In this document: positions 35,087 through 64,000 of the stretch, in pieces
How positions within the stretch are numbered: the stretch's first letter is position 1
How the letters are laid out: each line of letters begins with the position of its first letter
Assembly: GCA_000165345.1 (NCBI GenBank)
Contig: CM000433.1
Coordinates: forward strand, 640,001-704,000
Length of the DNA stretch: 64,000 nt
Reading direction: 5' to 3'
Program-made: the position numbers and the translations under genes
The notes under the pieces: model-generated
What the model was told of the DNA's origin: nothing
The model's database searches: none
What the model saw: the letters and a program-made list of their open reading frames with translations, nothing else

Positions 35087-35326
35087 TATATTTATAGCTT
35101 TCTTTATTATTATTTTTTTAATTATTATTTTACTAAAATTTAACTTCAAATATATATAAACATGTTAGTTTCAAATTTAAATTTTCAGCCTAAATAACTA
35201 TAAATAAATTCTCCATCTATACAAATATGAATATTTCGAATTACGTGTATTCAAATGCATATTTGCATGCATGCATATTTGGCTATTTTATGTGGATAAT
35301 TACACGTATGGCGGGAAATGCAAGAA

Positions 35327-39212: not shown

Positions 39213-41333
39213 ATGGACGATAGTTCAAAGAAAGTGGACGATATTGAGGTCTTAGATTTATTAAGAAAATCAAGAAATAGAGTATTGAAAGATTCAGATG
39301 AAAAAAATATTGTTGATAATGAAATGGAAAATGAAGATATGGATATAGATGAAGACGAAGAGGAGGAAGAAGAAGAAGAGGAGGAAGAAGATGAAGAAGA
39401 AGAGGAAAAGTTAGAAATGACAAGCGATTCAGATTCTGCGCAAAGTGATGAAAGACCAGAATTTGAACGTGAAGCGGAATTAGCAAAAGAATACGAAGAC
39501 GAAGCTCAGGCTAAAAGAAAGTACGAGCTATTATACAAAAATAAGAGGAGTCCTTCAAATAAGCAGGATTCTGCATTAATGAAATTACGTAATGCAAGAC
39601 AGAGAAAAATTAAAGGAATGAGACTTACACCATCAGAAGATGAAGAAGACAGTGAAGAAGAAGAATATCAGGGTAAAGATTCCGACGAAAATGATAATAC
39701 AGATAGTGAAGACGATGATGGAGATTATTATGGAGAATATGATAGTAGACATCAAAAAACTGATAAAATTAGTAAATCCAAAAGAAAATTAAGACATTCT
39801 GAATCAGATTCTGAAGAATATGATGATGATAATAACAATTATGAACGATTAAAATCAAAAGGACAAAAAAGATCTAGAAGAAATTCCTCTAATATTCAAA
39901 AAAGTAACCTATTTGATGATGATAATCAAAATCAAGAAAGAATGTTAAGAAGATGTGAAAAAGTACTTGAATCAATTAATTTAAAGCTAATGAAGTCTGT
40001 ACATTTAACAAAAGATAGAATAGAGTTCATGTTAGAACATCCAAAGTTTACTGAATATTTATGTGGGAGCTACGTAAAAGTACCAATTATTAATCCATCC
40101 ACAAATAGTGAGATTTTCTTAACATGTGAAGTTTTTGATTCTCATATTAGTGATGAAAATCAATGTGTATTAACTTTACAGAGAGGAGGATCTAAGAAAG
40201 AGTGGGGAATTGAAAGTATTTCAAACAATATATTCACAAATGAAGATTTACTTGAATGGAAAGCAATGATTAAAGAATTCTATTCCAATGATCCTGATTA
40301 TATTTTATCATTACCAAGAATACTACAAAAAAAAGCCAGGGATTTAAATAATTTTCAATATGGAGATGACGATATTGCTCTTATTCTTGAAAGAAAACAA
40401 AAGAAAGCAAGTACCCAATCTTTATCAGGTAAAACCTTAATTGAAACAAGAACTAACTTACAAACGCAAATTAAACAATTAGAAGCTCAGCTTAAAAATA
40501 TTGGATTGGATAATATTGTTAGAAAATCTAAACTTGCTAAAATTGATCAATTACAACAAGAATTAGAGCAAACTATTAATCAAATTGAGAAACTTAAATT
40601 ACAAAAAGAAATGATCCATCCTGATAAATCTCTTAGAATCACATCTTCTAGATATATTGGAGGAGTACAAGGTAAAGGATCTGGTACTATGCCTACATTA
40701 TTTAATAAGTCAAACTTAAGTGAAAATAATATGAATAATGGAATCACTACAGCTTCTAAAACTAACAAAACTTGCAATTCTTTATATAAACTTATTTTTG
40801 ATCCAACATCTCCAAAAAATTATTCTAAAAATAACCTAGGTTCTGGCGCCATTTCCAATAATGACTATAATCATGCAAAATCTCAATTATTTTCATCAAA
40901 TTCTAATCAAAACACAGAAATTCATTTTGGGAGAAGAGAATGTAGACCTTCTGTTATGTGGGAAACAAAGAGAAATAAGCCGAATACAAGACAACCAATA
41001 AATAGTAAAATTGAATCTTCTGATATTCAAGAAATTTCATTAACACCATCTGACCAAAATAACAATAAACCATCTGATTATGTTATTATTCAAGACATTG
41101 AAACATCTAAAAATTTTTCCTTAGAAACAGAAGAAATTATTTCTGATTTTAAAGATTTCTTTTCAAAAATTGACTTGAATCTTATAGTATCAGCCAGAAA
41201 TAACTCTCCTGTTTGTGTTCCTCCTATATATGATAGTTTCTGGAATCCTTCAGAATTCAATGCTATATCAAAAAACAATAAAGATCTCAACTCCGAATTT
41301 CAAGAACTTGTTAAGTTAGTAACAAATCCTTAG
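39213..41333 (+). CDS. RTF1: RTF1-like Paf1-complex subunit (Plus3 domain protein).
   Basis: Poly-Glu acidic N-terminus. The Plus3-domain block LTKDRIEFMLEHPKFTEYLCGSYVKVPI...FLTCEVFD...LLEWKAMIKE parallels Rtf1 [28 protein letters not shown]...EFMKWKEAM. TTTCCCGCCAAAAC motif upstream at 39121. Confidence 0.7.
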   Translation: MDDSSKKVDDIEVLDLLRKSRNRVLKDSDEKNIVDNEMENEDMDIDEDEEEEEEEEEEEDEEEEEKLEMTSDSDSAQSDERPEFEREAELAKEYEDEAQAKRKYELLYKNKRSPSNKQDSALMKLRNARQRKIKGMRLTPSEDEEDSEEEEYQGKDSDENDNTDSEDDDGDYYGEYDSRHQKTDKISKSKRKLRHSESDSEEYDDDNNNYERLKSKGQKRSRRNSSNIQKSNLFDDDNQNQERMLRRCEKVLESINLKLMKSVHLTKDRIEFMLEHPKFTEYLCGSYVKVPIINPSTNSEIFLTCEVFDSHISDENQCVLTLQRGGSKKEWGIESISNNIFTNEDLLEWKAMIKEFYSNDPDYILSLPRILQKKARDLNNFQYGDDDIALILERKQKKASTQSLSGKTLIETRTNLQTQIKQLEAQLKNIGLDNIVRKSKLAKIDQLQQELEQTINQIEKLKLQKEMIHPDKSLRITSSRYIGGVQGKGSGTMPTLFNKSNLSENNMNNGITTASKTNKTCNSLYKLIFDPTSPKNYSKNNLGSGAISNNDYNHAKSQLFSSNSNQNTEIHFGRRECRPSVMWETKRNKPNTRQPINSKIESSDIQEISLTPSDQNNNKPSDYVIIQDIETSKNFSLETEEIISDFKDFFSKIDLNLIVSARNNSPVCVPPIYDSFWNPSEFNAISKNNKDLNSEFQELVKLVTNP

Positions 41334-41735: not shown

Positions 41736-44252
41736 ATGTTAAATGAAGAGTATTGGAAATCCAAGAAAAGCGATGAGGCTTTGGTATTAGTTAAAAATGT
41801 CGATCCCAAAGAATTGACAAGTATTTGTACCATATCCCCATTTAAGCTTAAAGAGGAATGGTTAAATTACTTAGTGAAATTAGATAATTATGAGAAAGAA
41901 ATTCTAATTGGCCAGAATTGTAAATTAATTTGTGGATCAACAAAAGATTCAACAATAAAGATTTTTTGTGAGGAAGATGAAGACGAATTTTTGTCTTGTT
42001 TTAATATAGTAAATGTAAATACGCATGAGAAGGTTGAATATAATATTAAGAGCATTTATAGTATTATTAGACAAGAAAGTATGGAAGAACTAAGATACAG
42101 TTTGGAAGATGATTCTTCATTAGAATCACTTTATAAAGATATTATAATAATCATAAATACAGAAAATAAATTATTGTCTTGCAAGATTCCCTTGCATTAT
42201 ATATTAACTTTGTATATAAGGAGTCGGATTAGAAGAATTAGAGAAAAGCTTGGAAACTATCAAAATTCCGATATTAGTGTCTCAAATATTAGAAAAACTT
42301 TATGGATTTATCAAATAGAGAATATTAGTGGTACAAATTTAATTTCTTGTTATAACATTAATAATGTTTATCCTTATATACTATTAATTTCTAAAGATGA
42401 AGAAAAAGAGTTCAAAATGAACCTTTGTTTGATTTCACTAAATAGAATGGATTTTGAACTAAATATGGAATTTGAAAAGACAGGAAATCCTTTGAATATT
42501 ATTTGTTATAACAGCTTTATTTTGGGAGATAATTCATCTTATTTTGAGATTCTTGAGAATGGAATTGGATTCTTTCCGTTAAAATCCAGTTATATTTGGG
42601 TAATTACAACAAAAAAAACAGTAAGTGAGAGGATATTAGAAAATAATGATAATAATAATGAATTAAGGTTGGATAAAGATATCTTTGACAATAATGAAAA
42701 TGAAGAATTAAAAATAGAGGATCTTTCAGAAAGCTCAAGTTGTTGTTTCTATTTATTTGAATCAAATAGAAGTGAAATAAAACATAGAGGGAATATGTTA
42801 TGTACAAATTATGATATAGAATTTTTTAGGATCTTGAATTTGACTTGTACAAATGAAGGAAAAGATCAAACAGGAATTAAAGAGTATATAATAAGAACAG
42901 TTTCTTCAACAAAAAATCCGAATGGTTTGTTTTGTTTTGATTTCAAGCTCAGAATAAACCCAAATAGTTCAGAAAGTGACAGGATGGTCATTTTGTCATT
43001 AATTTTCATGCCAATTTTGGAAAGAGAAGTTGATAGACACATTGATAATGGAGATACAAGAAATTATTTGAACTATTCTTTTGGAAACAATGATGGCAAA
43101 AGTCTTAATAGAAGCAAAAATGATGAGGTTAGTTCATTTTCTAGAGGATATAATAATTTAAGAATCACTACTTTATGTGTAATACCAAATTATATTCTTT
43201 TATTATTTGGAAGAAATATAGAAAATGAATTACGTGAGAATTTTCCTTTGATATTTTGTGGATTATCAAATGGTGAATGGAGAACTTATAGTATAAAATC
43301 ATCATTAAAGACAAGGAGGAGTGAAATACAAGACAAAATTAACCTAAGCACTGATGATATTGGATTTTTTGTTCTTAAAGGAGTTCACTTACTAAGAGGA
43401 GATGAGCTTTCTATAAATAATCAGCTTGATGGCTTAAATTTAAGTATTACCCCTTCATGCTGGAGTTTTGATCGTAATACCAAAATGTCAATACTATCAG
43501 TGGCAGCATCAAATAGTATTGGTAATGTATTCTTGTGGTGTTTAGAAAATGAGAGAAGACAGCTTCCATCAAAAAATATACTTTCTAAAAAAAAAGAAAT
43601 AACAAAAGAGAAGAACATAAGCTTTGAAATATCATCAAAAGAGATAGAATCAAAGCTCAGCAATATAAAAAATGAGCAAGATAAAGAGAAAAGAGGTTTA
43701 ATATCGTCAAATAAAGTTTCAAAGAACAAAGATATTCTGAAAACTATGGACGAACATATTAGAAGAATTGATGAAAGGTTGAGAAAAGTAAAAATTCAAG
43801 AGGAAATAATCTCAGACGCTGAGAGACGTCGAGAAAAAGTGAGAAAAAATAAGGAAAAGTTGAAACCAAGGAGGAAGCTAACGAAAGAGGAAGCCGCCAA
43901 TTTTGTTCCAGACTGTTTGAGCAGGTCAGTTAGCCCCAGAAAAGGATGTAATTCCTGTAACTACTCAGACCCTGATGAGAAGAAGCCATTTTTCTTTAAA
44001 TCAAAATATGATAATTTTGACCATAAAAGATATAGAAGCTACTATAAGGATAATGATCACGAATATCTTTTCCAATTAAATAATTTTCTAAATATAGAGT
44101 GTATTTACAAGTCTAAATTGTTCACAGAGGCAGGAAACAATATTAAAAACCCACAAATTTTTAATGAAATTGTTGACTTTGATCGTCTTTGCTCTAAATG
44201 GTCAAAAAATATTAGTGACGATATTCATTTCGATGAAATTTTAAATGAATAA
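41736..44252 (+). CDS. Hypothetical protein (838 aa) with a basic K/R/E-rich C-terminal region.
   Basis: Long uninterrupted ORF. E2F-like TTTGGCGGGAAC lies upstream at 41441. No recognisable domain by eye. Confidence 0.5.
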   Translation: MLNEEYWKSKKSDEALVLVKNVDPKELTSICTISPFKLKEEWLNYLVKLDNYEKEILIGQNCKLICGSTKDSTIKIFCEEDEDEFLSCFNIVNVNTHEKVEYNIKSIYSIIRQESMEELRYSLEDDSSLESLYKDIIIIINTENKLLSCKIPLHYILTLYIRSRIRRIREKLGNYQNSDISVSNIRKTLWIYQIENISGTNLISCYNINNVYPYILLISKDEEKEFKMNLCLISLNRMDFELNMEFEKTGNPLNIICYNSFILGDNSSYFEILENGIGFFPLKSSYIWVITTKKTVSERILENNDNNNELRLDKDIFDNNENEELKIEDLSESSSCCFYLFESNRSEIKHRGNMLCTNYDIEFFRILNLTCTNEGKDQTGIKEYIIRTVSSTKNPNGLFCFDFKLRINPNSSESDRMVILSLIFMPILEREVDRHIDNGDTRNYLNYSFGNNDGKSLNRSKNDEVSSFSRGYNNLRITTLCVIPNYILLLFGRNIENELRENFPLIFCGLSNGEWRTYSIKSSLKTRRSEIQDKINLSTDDIGFFVLKGVHLLRGDELSINNQLDGLNLSITPSCWSFDRNTKMSILSVAASNSIGNVFLWCLENERRQLPSKNILSKKKEITKEKNISFEISSKEIESKLSNIKNEQDKEKRGLISSNKVSKNKDILKTMDEHIRRIDERLRKVKIQEEIISDAERRREKVRKNKEKLKPRRKLTKEEAANFVPDCLSRSVSPRKGCNSCNYSDPDEKKPFFFKSKYDNFDHKRYRSYYKDNDHEYLFQLNNFLNIECIYKSKLFTEAGNNIKNPQIFNEIVDFDRLCSKWSKNISDDIHFDEILNE

Positions 44253-44666
44253 TAACCTCAGAACAATATTTATTCCATTTTCCTTTTTTTTGCTTTAGAA
44301 CATTTCAAATCTTCAGTTTTACATAAATAATATTATTAATTTATCATTCAATTATTCCGATTTTTTATTTGATTTTTAACCATTTCCTCACTTATTGCAT
44401 GCATGCAGTATTTAAATTAATGTGGTCAGGTCAGGCGCCAAATTTTTATATTAAGAAGAAAATTAAATTATATTTTGTATTAATAATTAATATAATTGTT
44501 TATGTTATAGGTTTGGGTTTAAGTTTAAAAGAAAGAAGCAAGTATAGTTTTTATTAAAGAATATCCAAGATAAATAATTAATATCAGTGTTTTTTTTAAG
44601 AAGATAGACGTATTATGCAAACACAACTTTTGATAATTAGGTTAATTTGAGTGATAATGCGCTGAA

Positions 44667-45005
44667 ATGAGTAATACTGTGAAAACTGTAACTACAATAA
44701 ATGAACAAGTAATTGAAGTAGTATCAAATTTGGAAACAAATAAAATTTCAGAAAAACTAGAGGATATATCCACTAAAGTTAATCAACTATTAACAGGTTA
44801 TATAAGTAAAGAAAATGATGAATCAAGTGTAAGTAGCCAAGATGAATATGAAGGTCAAACAAGTGAAGAAACAAGCCTTAATAAGTGTTTGAACGCCAAA
44901 TACAAAAGCGCAAACTATGAAAGCGAAAAAGAATCAAATCCAGTAGATAATTCAGAAACAACTAGTAGAGGCAAAAGGCATAAAAAAGATACTAGTGATA
45001 AATAA
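44667..45005 (+). CDS. Small Ser/Glu-rich hypothetical protein (112 aa).
   Basis: The ORF is preceded by its own promoter-type cluster (TTGCATGCATGCAG at 44396, GGCGCCAAAT at 44445). This argues it is a real transcription unit rather than a chance ORF. Confidence 0.4.
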   Translation: MSNTVKTVTTINEQVIEVVSNLETNKISEKLEDISTKVNQLLTGYISKENDESSVSSQDEYEGQTSEETSLNKCLNAKYKSANYESEKESNPVDNSETTSRGKRHKKDTSDK

Positions 45006-45125
45006 GAAGTAGAATAAAACTAGTAATAATAAAATTATTAGTCTCCCAAAGACTAGATTGACTATGTGTGTAAGTGTTTTCTACTTTTAGTAACTAAAAC
45101 TCTAAAATACCAAGCTTCTTGATAA

Positions 45126-45728
45126 TTAAGCTATAATTCCTAATCTACCTGGATAGTAGTTTGTAGCTGGGAAGGAAAATTCAGCTTCTTTGTTGGTAAG
45201 TCTCTTGTAAACTGCACCAAAAACATCAACTTTATCGGCGATATCCTTATCCTTATCTTTAGGGTCAAGGATTACCTTTAATAAAGTACTTCCATCAACA
45301 CGGTATCTAAGACGTTTTCCAACAATATCACTTGGACCACAGATATCCTCCAACAATGCATCATGTACAGCTGTAAGTGTTCTTGATCTTGGTCTTGACT
45401 TGAAACCATATTTACGATAGTTTCTTGGTAAGATTGATCTTTGACCAATCATAACAACTGGGCACTTAAGTTTCTTCTCTAATTCAGCAATGATACGTCC
45501 TTGAATCTTACGTACATATGCCATGAAAATTGCATATGGAACAAATACTGCAACTGCCTTTCTTGAACCACAATCAATTTCCTTTGCAGTTGAGAAAACT
45601 ACTGATTGAACGATCGCTTTCAACTCCTCGTCATTGCTTGATGATTCGATGTCTTGGAAGCATCTCTCAACATCCTTTTCCAATTGGGTGAGTGGTGAAT
45701 CGTTCTTCTTGATACACTTTCCTTTCAT
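45126..45728 (-). CDS. RPS7: 40S ribosomal protein S7 (eS7).
   Basis: 200 aa. Typical eS7 blocks RKAVAVFVPY, RIIAELEKK, VVMIGQRSILP, TLTAVHDALLEDI, IVGKRLRYRVDGS. A strong promoter cluster with GGCGCC, (GC)5 and TGCATG lies upstream at 45840-45990. Confidence 0.9.
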   Translation of the reverse strand: MKGKCIKKNDSPLTQLEKDVERCFQDIESSSNDEELKAIVQSVVFSTAKEIDCGSRKAVAVFVPYAIFMAYVRKIQGRIIAELEKKLKCPVVMIGQRSILPRNYRKYGFKSRPRSRTLTAVHDALLEDICGPSDIVGKRLRYRVDGSTLLKVILDPKDKDKDIADKVDVFGAVYKRLTNKEAEFSFPATNYYPGRLGIIA

Positions 45729-45839
45729 TGTTAGAGTATGTTATTAGCCAGCCTCTCAACTACAAAAAAACTGTTCTAAAGTTAATGCCTTTATTTAATT
45801 CTTGTAATTTAACCCTTTTTTTTTACCTGGTACTTTTTT

Positions 45840-45990
45840 AGGCGCTACCTTTTTTTTCCTTGCTTTTGTTTGTCTCAAGTTCCTTTTATTTCCAAAATCA
45901 TTGGCGCCGTCTTTAATAAAATAAAGCGCGCGCGCGCAAATGCATGTACTCCCGCTTTATAATTTTTCTATGTATTTGTGCATGCAATAT
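45840..45990. promoter_or_regulatory. RPS7 upstream region: GGCGCT / GGCGCCG sites, an alternating (GC)5 tract, and TGCATG elements.
   Basis: ttaggcgctacc ... cattggcgccgtctttaataaaataaagcgcgcgcgcgcaaatgcatgtactcccgctttat ... tgtgcatgcaat. Confidence 0.5.
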
Positions 45991-46722
45991 TGTTCAAGAT
46001 GCTTTATGAATTATAAATGTTTATCAAATGAAATATAAACAAAAGGTTTAATTATAGAATTTAATTAATATTTCAAATATTTTGAATTTGTCAACTGAAA
46101 TTTATTTTAAGTAAGATTTAACTATTAGTTTGATTTTTTTTTTTAAATTAAATCTGTGTAGAAATTTAATTCAGGTACCTTAGTACCCAAAAAAAAAAAG
46201 AATTTATTCTAAGAGCAATATAAAATAATGTTAAATTAATAATTATTGTTATATTAAATTTAAAAAGTGGCATAATTATATCAACATTTGTCTTTTTTTT
46301 TTTAATAATTTTTGAATATTTAAAAAATAGTCATTAGTAATTCGTCTAAAAATGATTTAAAAAAAAAAAAAAAAAAAGAAATACTATACATCAAAATATC
46401 AATAAAACTACATCTTTGTATAATAAAATGAATTAATAACTTTTGAAAGCATACTCTAATTAATGATTTTTTTTCTTTTGTAAAACATGCAAATTTAAAT
46501 ATTAATGTGTGCGTGTGAATTTAACTCCAATATTAAAAGTTATTCGAGTATTTAAAGTTGCAAATTAAAAAGAAAAAAATTAAAAATAACAACTAATTGA
46601 TATTATTTGAATAAACCATTATAATTCTTTATTATGGTTTATTTTGCAATAAATTAGGAAGAAAAAAAAAATTTTATTATTAATTTCTAATTGGCATTAT
46701 TTTGAAGAAATAACAATTTAAA

Positions 46723-47536
46723 ATGCATGCAAGAAGATTAAATAGCACAAAACTTGAGGAAATAACATATCTCCCAGAGGAAGAAGATATTCTAATTTGG
46801 CATTCAAAGAGTTTAGAAAGTAAAGAAAAAAGTAATCTAGAACATCGACATTCTAGTAAAGCCAAAAAGAATTCCAATAATTTAAAACTGCAGACAAAAT
46901 TGATTTCTTCCCCAGATACTGAAAAACAAACCAAACTAGTAAATAAATTCCATACAATTCCAGAGGACTCAAAAACTAGTGTTTTTGATCGTCTTCTAGA
47001 TCCAAAGCTTTACACTGGAATGCATAAATATAGATTTGACAAAGATGGAAATGGACTAGGAAAAGCAGGTAGAGAATATTTATTCAGGGAGGATGGATAT
47101 ACTGAAAGCACAAAAAGAAAGCACGAAGTTGTTAGCTCCTCAATTAAGAGACATTCATATGCAAATATTTCCAGTAACGACTTCTTACAAAAAGCTAAAG
47201 TTATTTGGCTTTATAAAAATGGGGATAAATATGATAAAGGAACAATTTATTATGTTAAACCATATATCAGAAATATGACCCAACTACTTAATGAAATCAA
47301 TAGGGTAAGTCCAATCATTAATTCTTTTATTATTTTGCATTAATTTTTTGTTCACACTCCAGAATGTCAGACTTTTAGGCGGGCCCGTCAGAGCATTGTA
47401 TGATCAGGGGTTAAAACAAATTAATGGTGTATCAGAAATTGTAGATGGGGCAAAATATTTGTGTACTTCCGGAGAACAGCCAACATCAATTGAAAAGTTG
47501 GAAAAATTTTTGAGTTATTGGATAATTAATAAATGA
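46723..47536 (+). CDS. Apicortin: a partial p25-alpha domain plus a doublecortin (DCX) domain, 2 exons: 46723..47304, 47363..47536. Total 251 aa.
   Basis: p25-alpha-like block FDRLLDPKLYTGMHKYRFDKDGNGLGKAGREY, followed by DCX-like KAKVIWLYKNGDKYDKGTIYYV...R|NVRLLGGPVRALYDQGLKQINGVSEIVDGAKYLCTSGEQP. The intron is GTAAGT...CAG (47305-47362), phase 0. This p25alpha+DCX architecture is the apicomplexan apicortin family. Confidence 0.7.
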
Positions 47537-47877
47537 TTTTTCAATATCTTTTGTAGATGATAAAGATATCTCGTTGACATTCGTATTTACAACTTATTTG
47601 AAATTATATTTTACTAAAGAAAAAATTATTAAAAGTTTGTATATAATAATAACAGTAATAATAAGAAATTAACTAATTATAATCATTAATATTGAAATCT
47701 TGTTTGAATTTAAAGGAGAAATCAATGTATGATATTTCTACTCCAGAAACCCTAACTAATTGAATTTATGAATCTTTACTAGATAGGCGCATTCAAAGTA
47801 TAAACTGAGTGGAAATATTGACATTAGAATTTGCTCGATTTCCATTATTGAGCTTTTCATTAGAAATGTTTGTCTAA

Positions 47878-48813
47878 TTAATTACCATATCTTTTGCATA
47901 GATTTTGCCAAGCATGATATGTAAAATTGGAGATAATTCCAGTATTTTTCTCAAAATCAGACGAAATACTTGAATTGGCCAAAAAAACTAAAACCTTCTT
48001 GTCTTTACTTGTATTATTCTTAATGACAGTATTTGGAGAAGTAATTGAAATAAGGGAATCTTTTAGCAAAGATAATAGTGAAAATAAATTAAAACATGTA
48101 TTTGCAAAACCATATTGTTGATCTTTTTCTAAAACAAGCTCCCATAATTCAATACCCTCATTATTTATATCTTTTTCTTGTATTTTATTCAATAACTTAT
48201 TTTTGAATTCCTGTAATATTTGAATATTTTGTGTATCGTGAACATCTTCATCTTCTAAGGTTTTTGTTTCTTTCGATATTGTATTCTTAGTCCTGTTATT
48301 AACAACTCTAACCCTTTTTGCAGGTGGCTCACTATGGGTTTCTTGACTGAGTAAACCTTGTAATGTGTTAAATTTAATATTGTTAATTGGGAAAACGTTT
48401 ATTGTAAAATGATCATTAAACCATCCATTCCAATTCAATTTGACAAATTCATCATCATTTTCTGTAGGAAAGTCAGAATCCTCCTCAGATGTATCATTTT
48501 GCTGAGGCTTTTTATTCATGTATTTATCTTTCCAATTTTTTAATATGTTTCTTAACAATGAGTTTTGAGATTGTTTATATATCTTGTTATATCTTTTTTC
48601 ATTTACAAGTGCCTTTACTGATCCAAATTCACAAAGTAGTGAAAATGTCCGATAATCAGACTCACCAATATTTTCAAAAAACTCATCATCTTTTAATACA
48701 TATTCTTTGTATTCTGATCTCTTCTGTGGATCGCTTAGAAGGTCTTGATTTTTCTCAATTGCCCTTGTTAATTCTCTTATTTTTGAATGAATTGGCTCAC
48801 CCTCCATTGCCAT
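47878..48813 (-). CDS. Hypothetical protein. Weak resemblance to Nse4 (non-SMC element 4, the kleisin of the SMC5/6 complex).
   Basis: 311 aa. The N-terminal helix IHSKIRELTRAIEKNQDLLSD and C-terminal ELWELVLEKDQQYGFANTCFNLFSLLSLLKDS loosely mirror Nse4 RRIRRQYRQLMYSVQQNREDIV and [29 protein letters not shown]. By-eye similarity only. Confidence 0.35.
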   Translation of the reverse strand: MAMEGEPIHSKIRELTRAIEKNQDLLSDPQKRSEYKEYVLKDDEFFENIGESDYRTFSLLCEFGSVKALVNEKRYNKIYKQSQNSLLRNILKNWKDKYMNKKPQQNDTSEEDSDFPTENDDEFVKLNWNGWFNDHFTINVFPINNIKFNTLQGLLSQETHSEPPAKRVRVVNNRTKNTISKETKTLEDEDVHDTQNIQILQEFKNKLLNKIQEKDINNEGIELWELVLEKDQQYGFANTCFNLFSLLSLLKDSLISITSPNTVIKNNTSKDKKVLVFLANSSISSDFEKNTGIISNFTYHAWQNLCKRYGN

Positions 48814-48944
48814 TAACTTAAAATCTACTCAAAATAATATTTTCATTGCTGAAATAGCAAAAAAATTACAAAAAAAGTTAACTTCTACTTAGTTTCCAAG
48901 AATAACTTGATATTATTATTATTATTATTTTTTTTTTCCAATTT

Positions 48945-49015
48945 TCTATACCGGTATTACCCACATTTTAGGCGCCATACATGTAATTTGCATGACAAAT
49001 TTTGCATTTATTATT
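48945..49015. promoter_or_regulatory. Divergent promoter region (Nse4-like gene on minus / esterase gene on plus): CTATACCGGTA palindrome, GGCGCC, and GCATG elements.
   Basis: ttttctataccggtattacccacattttaggcgccatacatgtaatttgcatgacaaattttgcattt. Confidence 0.5.
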
Positions 49016-49327
49016 GCATAATGGCTGACAAATTTTAAATAAATAGTTGAAACCAAAATCACAGATTAGTCTCGAAATTGAGTAAGTTATAAAATAGGAA
49101 AAAAATGTAATAAAATTGGAAAGGATTTAAAGATTATACAAAGAAGAAAAATAAAATAACTAGGATAGGAAGAAAGAATTAAATAATTCAAATAATGTCA
49201 GAATAAAATAATAACCAAGATAATCGTTTCTGAAGAATAATAAACTAAGCATAATTATTATGTATACTCATATTTTTAAGAATATATATTTATATGAACA
49301 ATAAAAGTACATAATAAGTCAATAAAA

Positions 49328-52051
49328 ATGAAAAAAAATTATCATTTTAAAATAATAACGAATTTGTTGTTAATATTATTTTTATATAAGATTGAAGTTT
49401 TTGAATCTGTTGAAATTGAAGGCATACAACTAATAGGAAAGAAAAATAATGGAATTACATCATTCTATAATATCAGATATGGTGTAGCAAATCGTTTTCA
49501 ACCACCCAAATTATTATCAATTACTGAAGCTGTAATTATGGACGAGGATAGAACATCCAAAATTCCAAAAAGCTATGATTTATCAACAAATAAAGGCTCA
49601 TCATGTCCTCAAGACTGCTCAGATACTCAGCAAACAAGTCAAAAGACTTTTCTATGTAGAGGAACTGAGCCTGAAACTCAATCTGAGGCTTGCTTAACTT
49701 TGAGTGTATTTACAGCAACTAATCAGATTGAGGAAATATTGAGCCAGTTTTCTACTGTTGCAAAACATGTTTCTTCAAATAATACTCAAATTAATATGCT
49801 TTCAAGTGTAAATAATACTCTTATGAATAATCTTAATAAACAAAAATCAACCATATCTTCAATTGTACAAGCTAATATGTCATCTTTAAAGCCTGTCTAC
49901 GTTTTTATTCATGGTGGATTATACCTATTTGGATCTTCCAATTCTGAAACTAACTTTGGAGAAAAACTTGCAGAATCTGGAGCTGTAATTGTTACTATCA
50001 ATTATAGGCTTGGAATTCTTGGATGGTTAAGAACAAAAAATCTTTCATCTGGAAATATGGGATTTCTTGACCAAAGAATTGCTTTAGAATGGATTCACAA
50101 ATACATTGTAAATTTTGGAGGTGATCCTAATCGAATTATTCTTGCAGGACATAGTGCAGGAGCTAAATCAGTATTATGCCATTCAGTTACTGAAGAAAGT
50201 AATAAGTATTTCTCAGGTGTAATCATCCACTCTGGAGCTCTCTCTCAAAATGAAACTGCTCTTAAAGAGGCGGAAAATATGGGTGAAATGGCTGAAGCCA
50301 TTGCATCTGAAAAGTGTCTTGCAACTATATTAAGCTGTACAACTAAGCAATTATTGGAAATTCAAAAAGAGGTTAGAACACAAATAGTTCGATCTAATCC
50401 ATCCAAAGCTCTTCATTCTTGGTCTCCAATTGTTGATGGAGTTATTATCAAGGACTCTTGTAGAAATCTGGCATTATCTGGATCTATTCCTAAAAATATC
50501 AATGTAATTATCAGTACAACCAATTCAGAAGGTGTTCAATTCTTTAGATCATTTATTGCTTATTTACCAGCAATTTCAAGAGGTCTTGCTACTAGTAATT
50601 TTGCTTTTAGGTACCTAGTATCAAGAGTATTTGGCCCAAAAGCAGGAGAAGCTATGAAAATATATAGTAATAATAACTTTGCAAATTCTGCATCAATAGC
50701 TTCAGATTATGAAATATCTGATCCAAATTATGATTTGCAAAATAATACTAATATTAATCATGATAATTCTTCCTATGTTAATAATGAAACAATATCCAAT
50801 CCTATTGAAATTCAAAAAGAGGATAATGAAACTATGATTGGATTCAAAGCTGATGATATTAAATATGCAGATAAAGAAAATAATCAGATTGTTTCTAGTT
50901 CTGGATTTAATTTGTTCCAGGTTGGAAGAAATAGAGATGAAGAAAAGTGGAATGGTATAATTGATGATCCTGTGGCTTTAGCATATGCAAGAATGATTGG
51001 GGACTTTATATATAGTGTAAGTTTTTTTATTAAACAATATTTTATTCAAATTAATCCTTTATTTATTTCAGTGCCCAGCAAGAATGTTCATTAAGAAGCT
51101 ATCACAGTATAATCCTAATGTATATGGCTACTTTGTTAATAGTGGTTTTAAATGGACTGAAGGATTAAAGAAAGGATATGAAGTTAATAATAGTTCTTTT
51201 ATTTCTGGTAAGTTTTAAAGATTTCATTCATTTACATATTAATATCATTTCTCTTTTCAAAGAAATATTCCAAGCTCCCAAGTTTTCACTGAGAAATACT
51301 CCAAAAGGAGTAGTATGCCAAAACGACGATGTTGCCTGTAAAACTTATGTATATGATTGTAGCGATACCAGATTAGTTTGCCATATGGAAGATATGATTT
51401 GGTTATTCCAGACTTTTCCAAATAAATTGAATGATAATGTTGATCGAGTTTTTATTAATGAGCAGAATCTAGCTTTAACATTTTTCTCTCAATTAATTAA
51501 AAAGTCTTTGGGAGAAACTGAGACTCTTTCAAAAAAACAACAACAAATCTTCAGAAAGTCATCTTTCCCTGAATCTCTTGATATTTCTCCAGATGTTAAT
51601 TCTTGGGATTCATTTTCTGATGGAGGTAAGTCTAAATTATCTTTTTTTCCCCCTAAAAGAAAAAATCTTACAATTTGTAATTAATTTTATAGGTAAAATA
51701 CTTCAGCTTAATGGTAACAAGACTGAATTAGTTTCTGATTTCAAATCAGAAGAATGTGAGCTTTGGGAATGGAGAAATAATGACTTATCCATGACTTTCC
51801 ACCAACTAATTGATTCAAAGACTATTCCACAATCAAAGAATAATGTTGATAGTAATACCTTCACTGGTGTCAGCAGAAATGATGAGAATGAAAGTAGAAA
51901 TCTGAATATTAATCTGTTAGATGAAAACATTGAAAATCCTAATAGCAGCCTTTCAGATGATCAATTCAGTCAAATCTCAATCTTAACTCAAAATGATACA
52001 AAAAAAGATATTTCAGATAACTCCAATATTAATGGTAATGAGGAAATTTAA
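49328..52051 (+). CDS. Type-B carboxylesterase/lipase-family (cholinesterase-like) protein with a signal peptide, 4 exons: 49328..51016, 51072..51207, 51263..51625, 51693..52051. Total 2547 nt, 848 aa.
   Basis: Family blocks SEACLTLSVFTA (EDCLYLNVW), PVYVFIHGGLYLFGS, GAVIVTINYRLGILGWL, GNMGFLDQRIALEWIHKYIVNFGGDPNRIILAGHSAGA (GESAG serine nucleophile context). Hydrophobic N-terminus MKKNYHFKIITNLLLILFLYKIEVF. Introns are GTAAGT...AG and phases close. The ORF track fragments the gene across three frames. Confidence 0.75.
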
Positions 52052-52297
52052 TGATTATTAATTGATTTATGTATATATTATATATATATTTATATTTTTT
52101 ACGCAATAAAAATATATAGATTCTTAAACTTCTCAATGAAATAATCAATAAGTAATAATCGTTCTTATAATATTATTATCATTATTCTAGTTTCTAATTT
52201 AGATTCCTAAATAAACCATTTTGATTTGCCGAAAAATCCAATTTTGGATAAATCAGTATCAATGTTTCAAAATACAAAAGATATTCAATTTCGTATT

Positions 52298-52783
52298 TCA
52301 TGAAACTTTAACTTGAGAACCTTGAAAGTAAAGCTTCATAAAATATGCATCTTCCTTATCAGCATAATACTTGGCTTCTATACTATCTACCTTGTAATTT
52401 AATGCCTTTTGATACAAATTCTTTGCAGTATAATTTGAAATCCTTACATGCAAACTGCAGTATGGAGCATTATATATACTCTGCATACCATGATGATTTT
52501 GTGTAAGTAGCTTCTTTGCTAACCCAAATCCTCTATGTGTTCTTAAAACTGCTATTGAAGTAATATGTCCATGTAGGGGATTTGAATCATCTTCAATCTT
52601 GCCAAGAACATACCCTACAGACTTGTTTGGGTCATTTGAATCGGTTGCTATATCCAAAAGTTGTGGCCAAGTCATTGAATGATAATAATAATACTTAATT
52701 TGGTAGTTCTCTGGTAAACAGTACAAATTGTTCTGTTGTATTGTGAACAAATCATCTATTGTGGCTCTTCTAATACAAGCCAT
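52298..52783 (-). CDS. NAA10: N-alpha-acetyltransferase 10 (NatA catalytic subunit, Ard1).
   Basis: 161 aa, near-collinear with human NAA10: MACIRRATIDDLFTIQQNNLYCLPENYQIKYYYYHSMTWPQL versus [41 protein letters not shown]. It also has ...HGHITSIAVLRTHRGFGLAKKL..., ...YCSLHVRISN... and ...AKYYADKEDAYFMK. Confidence 0.85.
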   Translation of the reverse strand: MACIRRATIDDLFTIQQNNLYCLPENYQIKYYYYHSMTWPQLLDIATDSNDPNKSVGYVLGKIEDDSNPLHGHITSIAVLRTHRGFGLAKKLLTQNHHGMQSIYNAPYCSLHVRISNYTAKNLYQKALNYKVDSIEAKYYADKEDAYFMKLYFQGSQVKVS

Positions 52784-52924
52784 TCCTCCCCCAAAATTTT
52801 GTGTCTATCTTAGTTCTATTCCTTAATTCTTTGTTTCTAATTTCTTTTAACTCTTCTCCTTCTTTTCTATCCACACCTGATCTTATTCTAATTTTCTTAT
52901 TATATTTGTGCATTTTTCTTTTAT

Positions 52925-52965
52925 TTCAACTTGCTCAATTTTGGCGCCACAACTTCCCGCCTTTT
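52925..52965. promoter_or_regulatory. NAA10 upstream promoter elements (minus-strand gene; may be shared with the cullin-like gene): TTGGCGCCAC plus TTCCCGCC.
   Basis: caattttggcgccacaacttcccgccttttgaaagg, immediately 5' of the NAA10 start at 52783. Confidence 0.5.
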
Positions 52966-53578
52966 GAAAGGTTGAATTTCGACTAAAACAAAAATAAGAG
53001 GTTAATATTAGGTAGGAGGGCCAATTAGAAGAAAGAAAAGTGTGGTGAAACAAGAGGAAATATATTGAGCAGAAATATAAGTGATAGTCAGTTGTATTTT
53101 TTTGTGTGATAACATTATTACGGGTTTTATTGAGTCAGTAATAACAGTCTTATACTAGTATTAAAAAAAAAAAGAGTAAATAGGCATTTTGATAAATTAA
53201 GGACGGGTAACTTTGATGATAAAGCATTTTTAGCTTAAGGAGAGAGTATTTTGGTCAATTATAAGTTTATGGTTGGCTAATTTTTATGCAGTTTATGTAT
53301 AGAATTCAAAGTGAGTAGCTTTGAATATCAACAAGGGCGAAAGCCCTTTATATATCTATTACTATTGTATATCAATATAATTATTACATTAAATGTCTCT
53401 TAAAAGAATTCAGAGAGGTTTAATTAAAGAAGAATTCAAGAATTCAAGGTAATCTTTGAATGGAATTATTTATTATTTTTTTTTGTTTTAATATGCTGAA
53501 ATGCCTTTTTGATGTTAAATAGGAAAACGAGAGCAGATTAGTATTAGTGAATCTTGTATTATATTAAAAAAATTTAAG

Positions 53579-56500
53579 ATGTCCAAGAGTAAATATGAGG
53601 AGGAATGGGAGGAGAAGTTTGCAAAAAATATTGAAGGTAGCAAGATTAGTAGAGATATCAGTGATATTCTTTATGATATTGAGAAAAGTTGTTTAAAGCC
53701 TTTAATATACTTTTTAAAGTCAATCCCTTCTGGGTTTGCTCCACTTCCACTTCCCTCTCTGGAAGCTATATTGGAGCATAGTGAAAACGAATATGTTTCA
53801 TCTTCTTTTGGAGTTGAGAGAAGTATAGAAAGTGAAATTCGAAACTTAGGGACTAATTTCTGGTTCGATATGGTTATGAGTAATGGATCTGGGCCATTCA
53901 ATTCTAAGCAAATTAATTCTCCAAATGTATTTAATCATTGCTTAGTTAATAAGCTTAAACGTGTTTCTCGTAATGATGATTCAAAGGTAAATGATGAAGA
54001 AAAGGAACATGGTTGCGAAAATAGCACTTCTAATAATCATAATGATGATGATATAAATCATGGTAGTAATCAAGTTAATCAAGAAGATGAAAATTCACAA
54101 TATAAGAGTAAAAACTTTCAGATTGTGATTTCTCTTCAACAAATGTTGCATATTTATAGAATTGGAGGTATTAATAATGAAAATGTTTGGACAGCTTTAT
54201 TTGGAGCACAAATAATGGATCATCAAAGTAATAAAGTAGTTATTAAATATATTATGCCTTCATTTCTTTCAAATCAGATTCTAATGGATGCATATACAAA
54301 CATTATACAGATTTCAGAGCCTCAGAATAATTCAATGCAAATTTATATGTATTGTAGAAATATTTTAAAACATTTTTGTACTGATATTATTACTCCCAGA
54401 ATACTTATACATGCAAATATATTCTTATTATGGAATAGTACATTGAAAGATTTTTTCAATAATAAAACATATGATAAATTTCTCTCTGATATATTTAATA
54501 CAACTTCAGATAATTCACCAAAAGATTCAAATAACTCAAGTAATAATCATAGAAGCTCTTCTGATAGTGTCTTTTCTTTATATTCTGGCTTATTAGGTGG
54601 AACATTACCAAGCTTGCTTTTACTCAAAGTAATTGAGGAGGAATTTGCAAAGTTTAGTGTACTTACTCATTTTTTGATTCGAATCTTTGGTTATTTAGAC
54701 AGAAATAGCTGTCATGTATTTTCAAATTCACCAGATCTGAATATTACAGCTTTGTTGTACTTTTATAAGTGTGTATTCTTTCCATTATCATCATCATTTA
54801 CAGCAGCTTTATTAAATATAATTACAGTTGAGAGAGATTTCTTTGTACAAGCTTGTCTTAGAAGTTTATTTTCTCCAAAAATGAGTGACAAAAATGTATT
54901 TGATTGTATTAAAAGAATTGAGGATAGTGAGAAGGAGATAATAGAAATGGATGAAGTTGATGATGTTGAGGAGATTATATTAGGATCTTTTAGAGGATGT
55001 GAAAGAGGAACATCTTTGATTAAATGCAAAAAGGAGACCCATTTTTCTATTGATATGGATAATATTTATAGTAATTTAACAGTTGATAAGTTTCCTGGTG
55101 AAAGTTATAATAGGGTTTTATTTAATGTAATTAATAATATTATTTTAATAATGAGTAATAACTCAAGTAATAAGATTTTTCTAAAAAGGACAAATACTTC
55201 AGGGATTTATGATGACTATTTGGTTTCCAGATTTGGTAATACATCATCTTCATCTTCCTCTTCCTCTTCTTCAAATTCATCATGTTTTTTGGATAATAAA
55301 CTTAAAATGACTCGAGTTCCCAATTTTAAGATTGAGAAAAGAGTAACAGGGTTAAATAGAACATCAATAACAATAGATCCATATAGAGATTTAGAAGAAA
55401 ACCTTTTAGGTTTAAATAAAAGTTGTAAGATTTCTGGATTATTTTGGTTTCCACAGGAAGAAATCGATCAAACAGTATATAAGAATACGGTAGAAGAACC
55501 ATTTTTAAGAGGAACTTTGTATTACTATTATAATAGACTTGATGGTTTATTTGGATTTTTAGATTTGAAGCAAAGTTGTATGTTGGTCAACAGTATTTTA
55601 TTAAACGAAGAAAAAAGAGTTGTGAAAATCTTTCCAAAAAGATCTCATGCAGGATTTTTTAAACTTTTAGAGAGTGTATTGTTTTACTTTTTATCAAGAA
55701 AGCTGTTGGAGTCATATAAACAGAGTGTTTGTGGTATAATATTTCTAAATAAGAAAGAGATGAATGGTAACGATGTGGAATTATTAGATAGAAATGATAA
55801 GAATCTAAAATTTTGTTCTTTATTCAAGGGAAGTATTAGATCTTATATTAATAATGATAATTACTGTGCATTAAGATCAATTTACTTGTTGTTCTTAAAG
55901 GATACTTTAAGATCAAACTCTCATAATATTTTAAATAAGATATTATTAAAATCTGAGACTTGTAGTCGCCACAAGAAGTTAGAATTTCCAATAGGAAATC
56001 TTCAAATAGATATTTCAAAACTATCAAGTTCAATAGGAACAAGCACAAACAACCAAAATGGATCAAATAATAAATCAATTTCTACTGGCTCATCCAGACA
56101 GTCTTGCTTTGTATATTTAGCTTATGTAATATATGAATCAATAATAGAAGATGTCTGGAAAGTAATGAAAATTGAGAATGATGATTTATTAAAGAGCGAG
56201 AAGAATAACTCAATAAGAATGAGTGATAGATTTCTTAGTATTCAAATAATACTATCAATGTTGAAAAGATATAGAAGATTTGTCAAGATTTCTTTTGAAA
56301 ATGACAAAGTATTAAAAAAGATAATACATAGAGCATTCTATGATGGGCTTATATTACATCTCCAAAACTCAATTTCTCCAAACAATTACAATTTAGTTTT
56401 ATTCATGCTTTCCGCATGGATAGCTTCTTTTATTGACAATAGAATAATTCAAATTCACAGTATTTTTTCCCTTTTCAATGATGGAAAGCTTATAAATTGT

Positions 56501-57710
56501 ATAAATAGCTCAAATTGTGGTGGGTTTTCAATCGGTATTCAAGGAAAACCACAACTACAGAAGAAATCAACTCTAAGGGTTTTTTCAAAGTTTGTTTTTG
56601 ATTGGTTTAATAAATTCCTTGTAATTAGGTACTTGAATTACCAGGAATTGAATGAAATTGAAGAGATAATTTCAAATGGAATATTAATTATTGAGAAGAT
56701 TATTGAATCCAAAGACTTCTCAAAGATTTGTAATATTCTCATTAACAATATAATCAATAGTGTTTCTTTAATTAAACTACTTCCAAACTTTGAAGTAATA
56801 ATCTCATTATACAAAGACAGACTTTGTAAAAGATTACTAAATATAAATATGTTAGGCGCCAATCCAAACTTGACAAATGCGCGGGAAATTGCATGCATGG
56901 GGTTACAAGTTTGTTTGGAGCATTTTGTATTACTTTGTTTGGAGGAGAGTAGAGGAGTAGATGGGGACTTTAATTATTTGGGTGGAGAGGCGGGGATTAA
57001 TGACTTACTTTCAGCAATTGAGAATGATCGAAGTTGTTGGATGGAGACATTTCCAGGAAATTTGAGTGTAGAGGGTTACGAGAGTGAGAAAGCGAACAAA
57101 TCTTATTTGAATGATGATCGAATAGTTGGGGATTCAATGAATGTATCATTAAACAGCCTGAGGTCTTTGCTGGAGGATTTTTTGAGATCAATGTTTTCCA
57201 GAAGGAAAATAAATCATGAATTTCAAGTATTTTTAACAAGTAGTTTTAATTGGAGAAAAATGAATAACTATGTACTAACTCCAGTAGTTATGAGCAGATC
57301 TTCCTTTGATGATGAGATTAGTCAGAAGACAAATTCCGAGGAATTTTTGTATGGTTATTGTAATAATAATAAAAATTACAAGGATGTGAATATACCAGAA
57401 AAGATTAAGAAAGAAATTTCAAGATTTGAGTCTGAATATAAAAAAGAATTCCCCCATAGAAAGATTAATTGGCTCTGGGAGAATGGATTTGTAGTTTTGG
57501 AAGCCAAAGGTTTTAAGGCAAAAGTTTTAATTAATAAAAAAGAAGTAATTGGTGAATTAGTCAACTTTACTGTCATTTCTTCATTGTCAGTTTCTATCAT
57601 TTTGCTAAGAATGGGTGAATTTAAAGAAGGCCAGGAAATTACATTGGGAGATTTAGTTGATTATACGTGTTTGCCAATGATTGAGGTTGCGAGAGTATTG
57701 TTGAGTTTGT
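53579..57710 (+). CDS. Cullin-homology-domain protein (cullin family), large with N-rich inserts. The 3' end runs into the N-masked region and cannot be placed.
   Basis: Last readable segment HRKINWLWENGFVVLEAKGFKAKVLINKKEVIGELVNFTVISSLSVSIILLRMGEFKEGQEITLGDLVDYTCLPMIEVARVLLSL fits the cullin homology domain pattern (ELqVStfQmavLLlFN....t..ei...tgi...eLkrtLqSL). A cullin-repeat-like FEVIISLYKDRLCKRLL is also present. 1370+ aa of continuous ORF. Confidence 0.55.
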
Positions 57711-58481
57711 NNNNTNCNANTCNGAANTNNNTNAANNNTTNTNANCNNANTAANNNTCNNTNNAAANTANNNATNCNANTANCNNNNNANNANATTNTAT
57801 CATNNNNNNNNTTNGNNNAATNNAGANNNNNTNNTCNTNNTNTNTNANNNTATTNTNNANANTTGNGANNNNNTNANANTNTNTNANNANAANNTTNNNN
57901 TANGNNNCANNNTNNTTNNNNATNAACNTNCNTTTTTANNNNTNANNTNTTCNTCTTTATGATTNTTAANNTCNNTTNNNATANNCNNNGNTTNNNNAAN
58001 AANTCANNTTTANNNTNNTNANNNNNTTNNNNTTCTNTCNNATTNTNAATANNTATATNAATTANAACGANNTNNNTNANGNANNACNNNTNTATTNAAN
58101 NNTNAATNTTNNNNNTNATTTNNAATAAGNATAAGANNNNANTTTNNATNTNTNTNAANANNTTNTGGNNNTCCNGATTNATTGTNNTANATNNAATNNA
58201 NNNNANTNANTACANNATTNTNATTNTTNTCCAAANNTNATNNNATTANGCNTATCCAATAAAGCAGATGAACAATTNTGATTNTNTTNGNAATTATNAA
58301 TNCAAANCTANCANNTTNATATATAGANNTAANTNNNGTNNANNATNTNACGAGTCTNATAANTTNGANANCTNNANTNNNTTCAATNNTACTTAANANT
58401 NANAAANATTCNNTNNANNNTCAANNTCTNCAATTATACNTTTANNAGTNNTNTNANTNNTNTCNTGTTTAATAATTNCTC

Positions 58482-58505
<24 letters not shown>
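57711..58505. other. Randomly N-masked / low-quality sequence block. About half the bases are n in an irregular pattern. It is uninterpretable.
   Basis: Directly visible: nnnntncnantcngaantnnntnaannntt... The block spans the junction between the cullin-like (+) and midasin-like (-) gene ends. The ORF-track entries at 58010..58234 and 58062..58259, and the X-containing tails of the two large ORFs, are artefacts of this block. Confidence 0.95.

Positions 58506-64000
<5,495 letters not shown>

Follow-up and report, generated by a model that had tools for sequence, protein, structure and literature searches.

Does a patch of coding sequence that spells three promoter-type motifs act as a regulatory element, or is it merely the trace of the peptide that it encodes? 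This question is raised by a cullin-family gene of Cryptosporidium parvum, in which two E2F-like motifs and one AP2-like motif occur close together in the middle of the open reading frame. The gene lies in a stretch of 64,000 nucleotides of chromosome 5 (assembly GCA_000165345.1, contig CM000433.1, positions 640,001 to 704,000), which we refer to as the window and whose first letter is position 1. The original prediction, made from the letters of the window, offered two answers: an internal promoter, for example for an antisense transcript or a 3' isoform, or a coincidence driven by the peptide sequence.

The part of the window from 43579 to 57710 was 100% identical to the C. parvum chromosome 5 sequences CP044418.1 and CP029784.1. 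We identified the gene as cgd5_3100 because its C. hominis orthologue is CHM_5g3100 and because of the position of the misassembly in chromosome 5 of the Iowa II assembly, which begins directly after cgd5_3100 (PMC4637869). The gene has the GenBank locus tag CPATCC_002334 and probably corresponds to cpbgf_5003100. In intact C. parvum assemblies, the coding sequence (CDS) is 5.5 kb long and its product has 1830 amino acids; orthologues were found in 10 further Cryptosporidium species. In the window, the region 57711-58505 contains 321 scattered N and is followed by a midasin-like AAA ORF on the minus strand (58482-63974), whereas the gene that adjoins the cullin gene in intact assemblies is a VPS13_N gene on the plus strand. 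Due to the N stretch and the misjoin from 57711 onwards, the last 1.36 kb of the cullin CDS is absent from the window. The misassembly leaves the motif-cluster finding untouched. Upstream of the gene, the closest E2F sites in intergenic DNA, TTTGGCGCCA and TTCCCGCC (52940-52961), are 160-171 bp away from the start of a divergent acetyltransferase gene and ~630 bp away from the cullin ATG, so the cullin gene may have a long 5' UTR or a promoter that has not yet been recognised.

Table 1 Positions of the cullin gene and of the motif sites inside it (window coordinates unless an accession is given)
Feature	Position	Strand	Description
Cullin-family CDS cgd5_3100, readable part	53579..57710	+	ORF; Pfam PF00888 Cullin, E = 5e-20
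Motif cluster, 46 bp	CP044418.1:718,667-718,712		codons 1093-1106
E2F/DP-type site ATTGGCGCCT, palindromic core GGCGCC	56854..56863	-	rare codons GGC GCC (Gly-Ala)
Weaker E2F-like site GCGCGGGAAA (TTTCCCGC on the - strand)	56879..56888	+	codons GCG CGG GAA A
ApiAP2 AP2_1-type palindrome TGCATGCA within TTGCATGCATG	56889..56898	.	codons ATT GCA TGC ATG
Candidate fourth site GAGGCGGGGATT, GGCGGG core	56987..56998	+	~90 bp downstream of the cluster; weak evidence

The coordinates given for the cluster in the original prediction were correct. The three strings GGCGCCAA (56855), GCGCGGGAAA (56879) and TGCATGCATG (56890) lie within 46 bp and in frame, where they are encoded by TTA GGC GCC AAT ... 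GCG CGG GAA ATT GCA TGC ATG and translated as LGANPNLTNAREIACMGLQ. The cluster is located 3.3 kb into the CDS, at 60% of its length and far from any gene start. We compared the sites with the upstream motifs described for C. parvum, which include the E2F-like motif 3, DTTGSCGCCH, and the ApiAP2 motif 1, BGCATGCAH (PMC3734150). The first site, ATTGGCGCCT, was an exact match to DTTGSCGCCH; this definition has 8 matches in the window, compared with 0.10 expected by chance, and only ATTGGCGCCT falls in a CDS. The AP2_1 definition BGCATGCAH was matched exactly on both strands of 56889-56898, by TGCATGCAT (plus) and TGCATGCAA (minus). The middle site fits the generic E2F consensus TTTSSCGC; it reads CGCGGGAA, and all 10 intergenic copies in the window read GGCGGGAA. 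The E2F-like upstream motif 4 (TTTGGCGGGAAV) was not found at this site, where ATGCGCGGGAAA agrees with it at 9 of 12 positions, with three mismatches and the core CGCGGG instead of GGCGGG. Of the three published motif families, the cluster therefore matches two by sequence and departs from the third. The candidate fourth site, which the original prediction had overlooked, uses the rare codons GCG GGG and holds the only GC-only hexamers of the cullin CDS outside the three-site patch; it is kept only in C. parvum, C. tyzzeri, C. hominis and C. meleagridis, and has been lost in chipmunk genotype I and C. canis. No poly-T tract was seen near the cluster when the sequence was inspected by eye.

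All three motif types are far more frequent in the window than expected: TGCATGCA has 9 matches (0.58 expected), GCGGGAAA has 7 (0.27 expected) and GGCGCCAA has 10 (0.05 expected). To define coding sequence, we treated 24 ORFs as coding, which together cover 48.5 kb or 76% of the window. The motif classes had been said to cluster otherwise at gene starts, and this was borne out, as the intergenic share was 9/11 for GGCGCC, 10/13 for GCGGGAA and 7/11 for GCATGC. Among the seven other sites in the window with at least two classes within 100 bp, six are upstream of gene starts, where the motif cluster at 44397 is counted as upstream of a small gene that lies downstream of 44397. The rarity of GC-only hexamers, likewise claimed at the outset, holds for the CDS, with 0.27 per kb compared with 3.49 per kb outside (13x denser outside). 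Five such hexamers occur in the cullin CDS, all of them in 56855-56995.

We then asked how far the encoded peptide accounts for the motifs. Among the 15,867 codons of the window, GGC makes up 7.1% of the Gly codons, GCC and GCG make up 5.6% and 4.1% of the Ala codons, and CGG is the rarest Arg codon (4/800, 0.5%). With these frequencies, the peptide would be spelled by this set of seven core codons with a joint probability of 6.5e-8. Furthermore, we shuffled synonymous codons within each of the 24 ORFs in 3000 replicates. Two or more motif classes within 60 bp were seen in 0/3000 permutations, and the same was true of the triple cluster; a rough extrapolation from the permutation rates gives ~1e-4 triple clusters in all CDS of the 9-Mb genome. 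A coincidence driven by the peptide was therefore rejected: the peptide does not dictate the motifs, which owe their presence to rare codons. Codon rarity alone is not unique to the patch, since it ranks ~8th of 15.9k 12-codon windows in a plain rare-codon score. The improbable part is that the rare codons spell promoter motifs. The same permutations gave an expectation of 0.055 GGCGCC in the 48.5 kb of CDS, with 2 observed. The copy outside the cullin gene belongs to an exact E2F palindrome, TGGCGCCA, at 40841-40854 inside the CDS 39213-41333, ~490 bp before its stop codon.

A looser form of coincidence is that a GC-rich patch of rare codons, lying in a relaxed protein loop, drifted neutrally into spelling the motifs and has persisted through shared ancestry and through amino-acid constraint on Gly-Ala, Arg and Ala-Cys. 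It agrees with this explanation that motif-free patches of rare codons exist elsewhere in the window, but the absence of even two neighbouring classes from all permutations, and the genome-wide expectation extrapolated from it, argue against it. To compare orthologues, we aligned the codons of the cullin gene from C. parvum and the 10 further species. The three species C. parvum, C. tyzzeri and C. hominis share 97% codon identity, a divergence too small to be informative, as an explanation by drift would also have it. Because the four closest species are hardly independent of one another, the test of conservation relies mainly on C. meleagridis, chipmunk genotype I and C. canis.

The 5.5-kb CDS of C. 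parvum, C. tyzzeri, C. hominis and chipmunk genotype I contains GGCGCC, GCGGGAA and GCATGC nowhere but in this patch. The codons GGC GCC are identical in these four, in C. meleagridis and in C. canis, and the palindrome TGCATGCA is invariant in six species, with the C. canis version extended to ATGCATGCATGCAT, in which GCATGC is doubled. The core of the middle site is kept in chipmunk genotype I, differs by one base in C. meleagridis (GCGGGGAA) and reads GGCGCGCGC in C. canis. We quantified the variation in the five AT-rich species, in which 18.8% of the nucleotide columns of the whole gene are variable. The 16-codon patch has 11/48 variable bases and is more variable than 80% of the windows of the gene; within it, only 1/21 core bases vary compared with 10/27 neighbouring bases (Fisher p = 0.008). 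The avoidance of the cores by the variable bases speaks against drift, although Gly-Ala, Arg and Ala-Cys are indeed conserved as amino acids in this clade.

In C. canis, the gene has 53.7% GC compared with 28% in C. parvum, and the amino-acid identity here is only 54%. The peptide REI is changed to RMH in C. canis, yet GGCGCC (GGCGCCAA) is kept at the same spot, and GGCGCGCGC, which represents the other E2F core type, [C/G]GCGC[G/C], stands in place of GCGCGGGAAA. The codons GGC, GCC and GCG are common in this species (~30% each), so GGC and GCC would be expected there under drift as well; GCA, with 18% of the Ala codons, is nevertheless retained, and the motif classes persist through the amino-acid changes. 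Since GGC, GCC and GCG are common codons in C. canis, it is the motif that has been conserved; codon rarity has not. A comparison of orthologues had been proposed as the means of separating conservation of the peptide from conservation of the nucleotides. We found the motifs kept at the nucleotide level down to C. canis, and a peptide kept with its motifs lost was not seen in this range. As judged from a small sample of species, conservation at the nucleotide level exceeds what the protein needs. In the GenBank annotation of C. canis (L006, 588-6077), the uninterrupted 1830-aa ORF is split into two models, of which the second starts ~110 nt after the motif cluster; this position is suggestive, and the split is probably a gene-prediction artefact.

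The cluster was absent from the patch in C. felis, C. ryanae, C. xiaoi, C. muris and C. serpentis. Motif turnover elsewhere in the gene was not found in these five species, in which the only occurrences were one stray GCGGGAA each in C. felis and C. xiaoi. The Gly, Ala and Arg residues are also present in C. ryanae and C. xiaoi, where they are spelled by the ordinary codons GGA and GCA AGA, which is a further point against persistence by amino-acid constraint. Taken together, we regard coincidence or neutral drift as an improbable explanation of the patch. The cullin ORF is uninterrupted in all 11 species, and the cluster is derived, because the outgroups have a continuous ORF without motifs. 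We ordered the branch points of C. felis and C. canis by the usual Cryptosporidium phylogeny; given this phylogeny, the alignment dates the gain of the cluster to the interval between them. The origin of the module would thus be later than the split of C. felis and earlier than that of C. canis, and since then the patch would have been kept by selection on DNA rather than on protein. The same comparison excluded a remnant promoter between two fused genes, as the ORF is continuous in 11/11 species and the outgroups are without motifs. An antisense protein gene was also rejected. An 86-aa ORF on the minus strand (56638-56898), with its ATG inside CCATGCATGCA, is open from C. parvum to chipmunk genotype I and has no called gene on record; in C. 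canis it is reduced to 29 aa, and a protein gene is unlikely here.

The codon usage of the patch could also reflect a signal at the level of RNA or translation, that is, a ribosome pause at a domain boundary or a hairpin in the mRNA. The patch contains four rare codons within 10 codons and is a variable loop between conserved segments, as would suit a pause. However, the same codons are common in C. canis, so the pausing property is not conserved there while the motifs persist, and TGCATGCA is not needed for a pause, since its GCA is the commonest Ala codon in the window. A hairpin is disfavoured by the folding of the patch (z = -1.18; 25/200 shuffles fold at least as well), and a search of Rfam gave no family match, with a single hit at chance level (E = 0.64). 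We consider a signal of this kind highly improbable.

These results suggest that the three sites are probably a real internal regulatory element in the cullin CDS. The 46-bp patch would be a cis-regulatory module at the level of DNA, set in a poorly constrained loop of the coding sequence and composed of one strong and one weaker E2F/DP-type site and one ApiAP2 (AP2_1) palindrome, a combination as at real promoters in the C. parvum genome. According to Oberstaller et al. (2013, PMC3734150), E2F/DP and AP2_1 sites define C. parvum promoters. The cullin patch resembles their promoter modules in that motif 3 and motif 1 are exact and are accompanied by a third, E2F-like site, and three upstream regions of the window (31193-31224, 44397-44441 and 52943-52960) have the same combination and spacing (<50 bp). 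Unlike these modules, which are intergenic, the cullin sites also encode Gly-Ala, Ala-Arg-Glu and Ala-Cys-Met, and the GCGGGAAA site in the cullin gene is without the usual preceding G.

One way in which such a module could act is that E2F/DP and/or AP2 factors bind to it without starting transcription, with consequences for the cullin gene or for genes next to it; these could be repression at particular stages, an obstacle to polymerase elongation or the positioning of nucleosomes. The codon spelling and conservation that point to selection on DNA apply equally to this possibility; no lncRNA is recorded at the locus among the catalogue entries listed, and Oberstaller et al. caution that a motif by itself is no proof of binding or of use as a promoter (PMC3734150). 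On the other hand, an intragenic role other than that of a promoter is not documented in the Cryptosporidium literature examined, and the same motif combinations in the window are almost always found just upstream of genes. We therefore consider binding alone to be unlikely.

The alternative, that the patch is a lineage-specific intragenic promoter working in either direction, is the reading that we favour, and we hold it tentatively, at slightly less than an even chance. It is favoured because E2F/DP and AP2_1 mark promoters, open chromatin and the regions upstream of lncRNAs in C. parvum. E2F motifs dominate the open-chromatin peaks in a study that lists two E2F and two DP genes (PMC11761812), and of all motifs in the 100 bp upstream of lncRNAs, E2F/DP and AP2_1 rank highest; they occur together upstream of 17 lncRNAs (Li et al. 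2021, PMC7840661). In that catalogue, 363 (~92%) of 396 lncRNAs are antisense to genes (PMC7840661), and for this reason a start inside a sense CDS is a documented arrangement. Another annotation, CpBGF, lists 766 lncRNAs as well as UTRs (PMC12179316). The cullin patch differs from the known antisense lncRNAs, which are biased to the 3' ends of genes and mostly share the bidirectional promoter of a neighbouring gene (PMC7840661). It also differs in part from the E2F sites of polycistronic transcripts: these too are embedded in a larger transcription unit and have been proposed to give rise to internal transcripts at certain stages, but they are located in untranslated spacers between ORFs (PMC11761812), whereas the cullin ORF is continuous in 11 species. 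In addition, no AP2 motifs were seen in the open chromatin of sporozoites (PMC11761812). A poly-T tract is the other common feature of open-chromatin peaks and of the regions upstream of lncRNAs in C. parvum, so that its absence near the cluster counts against a promoter, as does the departure of the middle site from the GGCGGGAA form of the intergenic copies.

Factor binding at the patch, transcription initiation and its direction are what we infer from the sequence. As we picture it, an E2F/DP factor and an AP2 factor would bind to the patch, open the chromatin and start transcription by RNA polymerase II inside the gene. An antisense or bidirectional non-coding transcript may arise from the patch, which we judge rather unlikely when taken by itself; a transcript in the sense direction is clearly less probable. 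We favour antisense or bidirectional transcription over sense transcription because antisense lncRNAs number in the hundreds and only ~4 mRNA isoforms are annotated (PMC12179316), because a protein starting after the patch would consist of a cut cullin domain, and because M1154 is not kept in C. canis. The only directional motif of the cluster is GCGGGAAA, which is on the plus strand; as we read the window, copies of this form mostly face the mRNA. Its orientation leaves the direction unsettled, as promoters in C. parvum are often bidirectional.

The idea of a 3' isoform, which was part of the original prediction, has been weakened by these comparisons. Just before the patch lies LLPNFEVIISLYKDRLCKRLL (YKDRLCKRLL), which we take to be the cullin signature Y..LAKRLL, so the patch follows a cullin-like signature. 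PDB sequence and profile searches gave no matches to the cullin signature, and in an hhalign comparison with a segment of human CUL1, for which the query was approximate, only the downstream alpha/beta domain was aligned. The first in-frame Met downstream of the patch, M1154 (CWMETFPG), is kept from C. parvum to chipmunk genotype I and is replaced by Thr in C. canis. The combination expected of an isoform, a conserved downstream start with a self-contained domain, was not found.

We also looked for transcripts from the patch in the lncRNA catalogue of Li et al. 2021, using 12 antisense and 6 sense 14-18-mers over 56300-57135, the motif strings and the gene identifiers. Among the entries listed (to Cp_lnc_394), none was at the locus; the catalogue does not include stages under 24 h. 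Four of the motif strings occur in the catalogue, and the entries inspected do not fit the cullin locus. A second promoter-type cluster in the window, TGCATGCATGCA and GGCGGGAAA at 35264-35318, was intended as a positive control and had no match among the listed entries of the 2021 lncRNA catalogue either. It is flanked by the 3' ends of two convergent ORFs, 33734-35086 (plus strand) and 35327-37627 (minus strand), and points into the gene on the minus strand, an arrangement compatible with an antisense promoter at the 3' end of a gene.

A more far-reaching version of the favoured reading is that a promoter module was created de novo in an essential-looking CDS and now drives a stage-specific transcript that controls or splits cullin expression. 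The route would have been substitutions, either synonymous or tolerated in the loop, in the ancestor of the clade from C. canis to C. parvum. As an antisense RNA, the transcript could gate the cullin mRNA; as a sense RNA, it could encode a C-terminal fragment with Rbx1-binding and neddylation functions. We think it very doubtful that all of this applies. If it did, the patch would be a dated example of a promoter arising where the sequence also has to encode protein, in a genome that has hardly any non-coding DNA to spare.

The regulation of Cryptosporidium genes is poorly understood, and almost no cis-element has been tested. The cullin patch is a compact test case in this respect, as its three separable sites can be changed by synonymous recoding that leaves the protein intact. 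From it one could learn whether E2F/AP2 motifs suffice to start transcription wherever they are present, and species that have the cluster (C. canis to C. parvum) can be compared with those without it (C. felis and deeper). The signal of selection on the patch, as read from the alignment, is clean, and the synonymous recoding is easy to design. If the patch is active, a regulatory code can be overlaid on CDS in a genome of which ~75-80% is coding, and motif scans confined to intergenic regions would miss part of the regulatory map. Intragenic antisense promoters with E2F/AP2 motifs are already expected in the C. parvum genome. An active element would thus be unusual mainly for its place in the middle of a gene under dual coding constraint, and for its datable origin.

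Apart from the cullin gene, we noted a difference between gene models in the window. For the carboxylesterase gene at 49328-52051, one C. parvum annotation and other species have one model of 848 aa. The window has separate ORFs instead (49328-51094 and 51178-51684), as does another C. parvum annotation, which suggests an intron, a frameshift or a difference in annotation.
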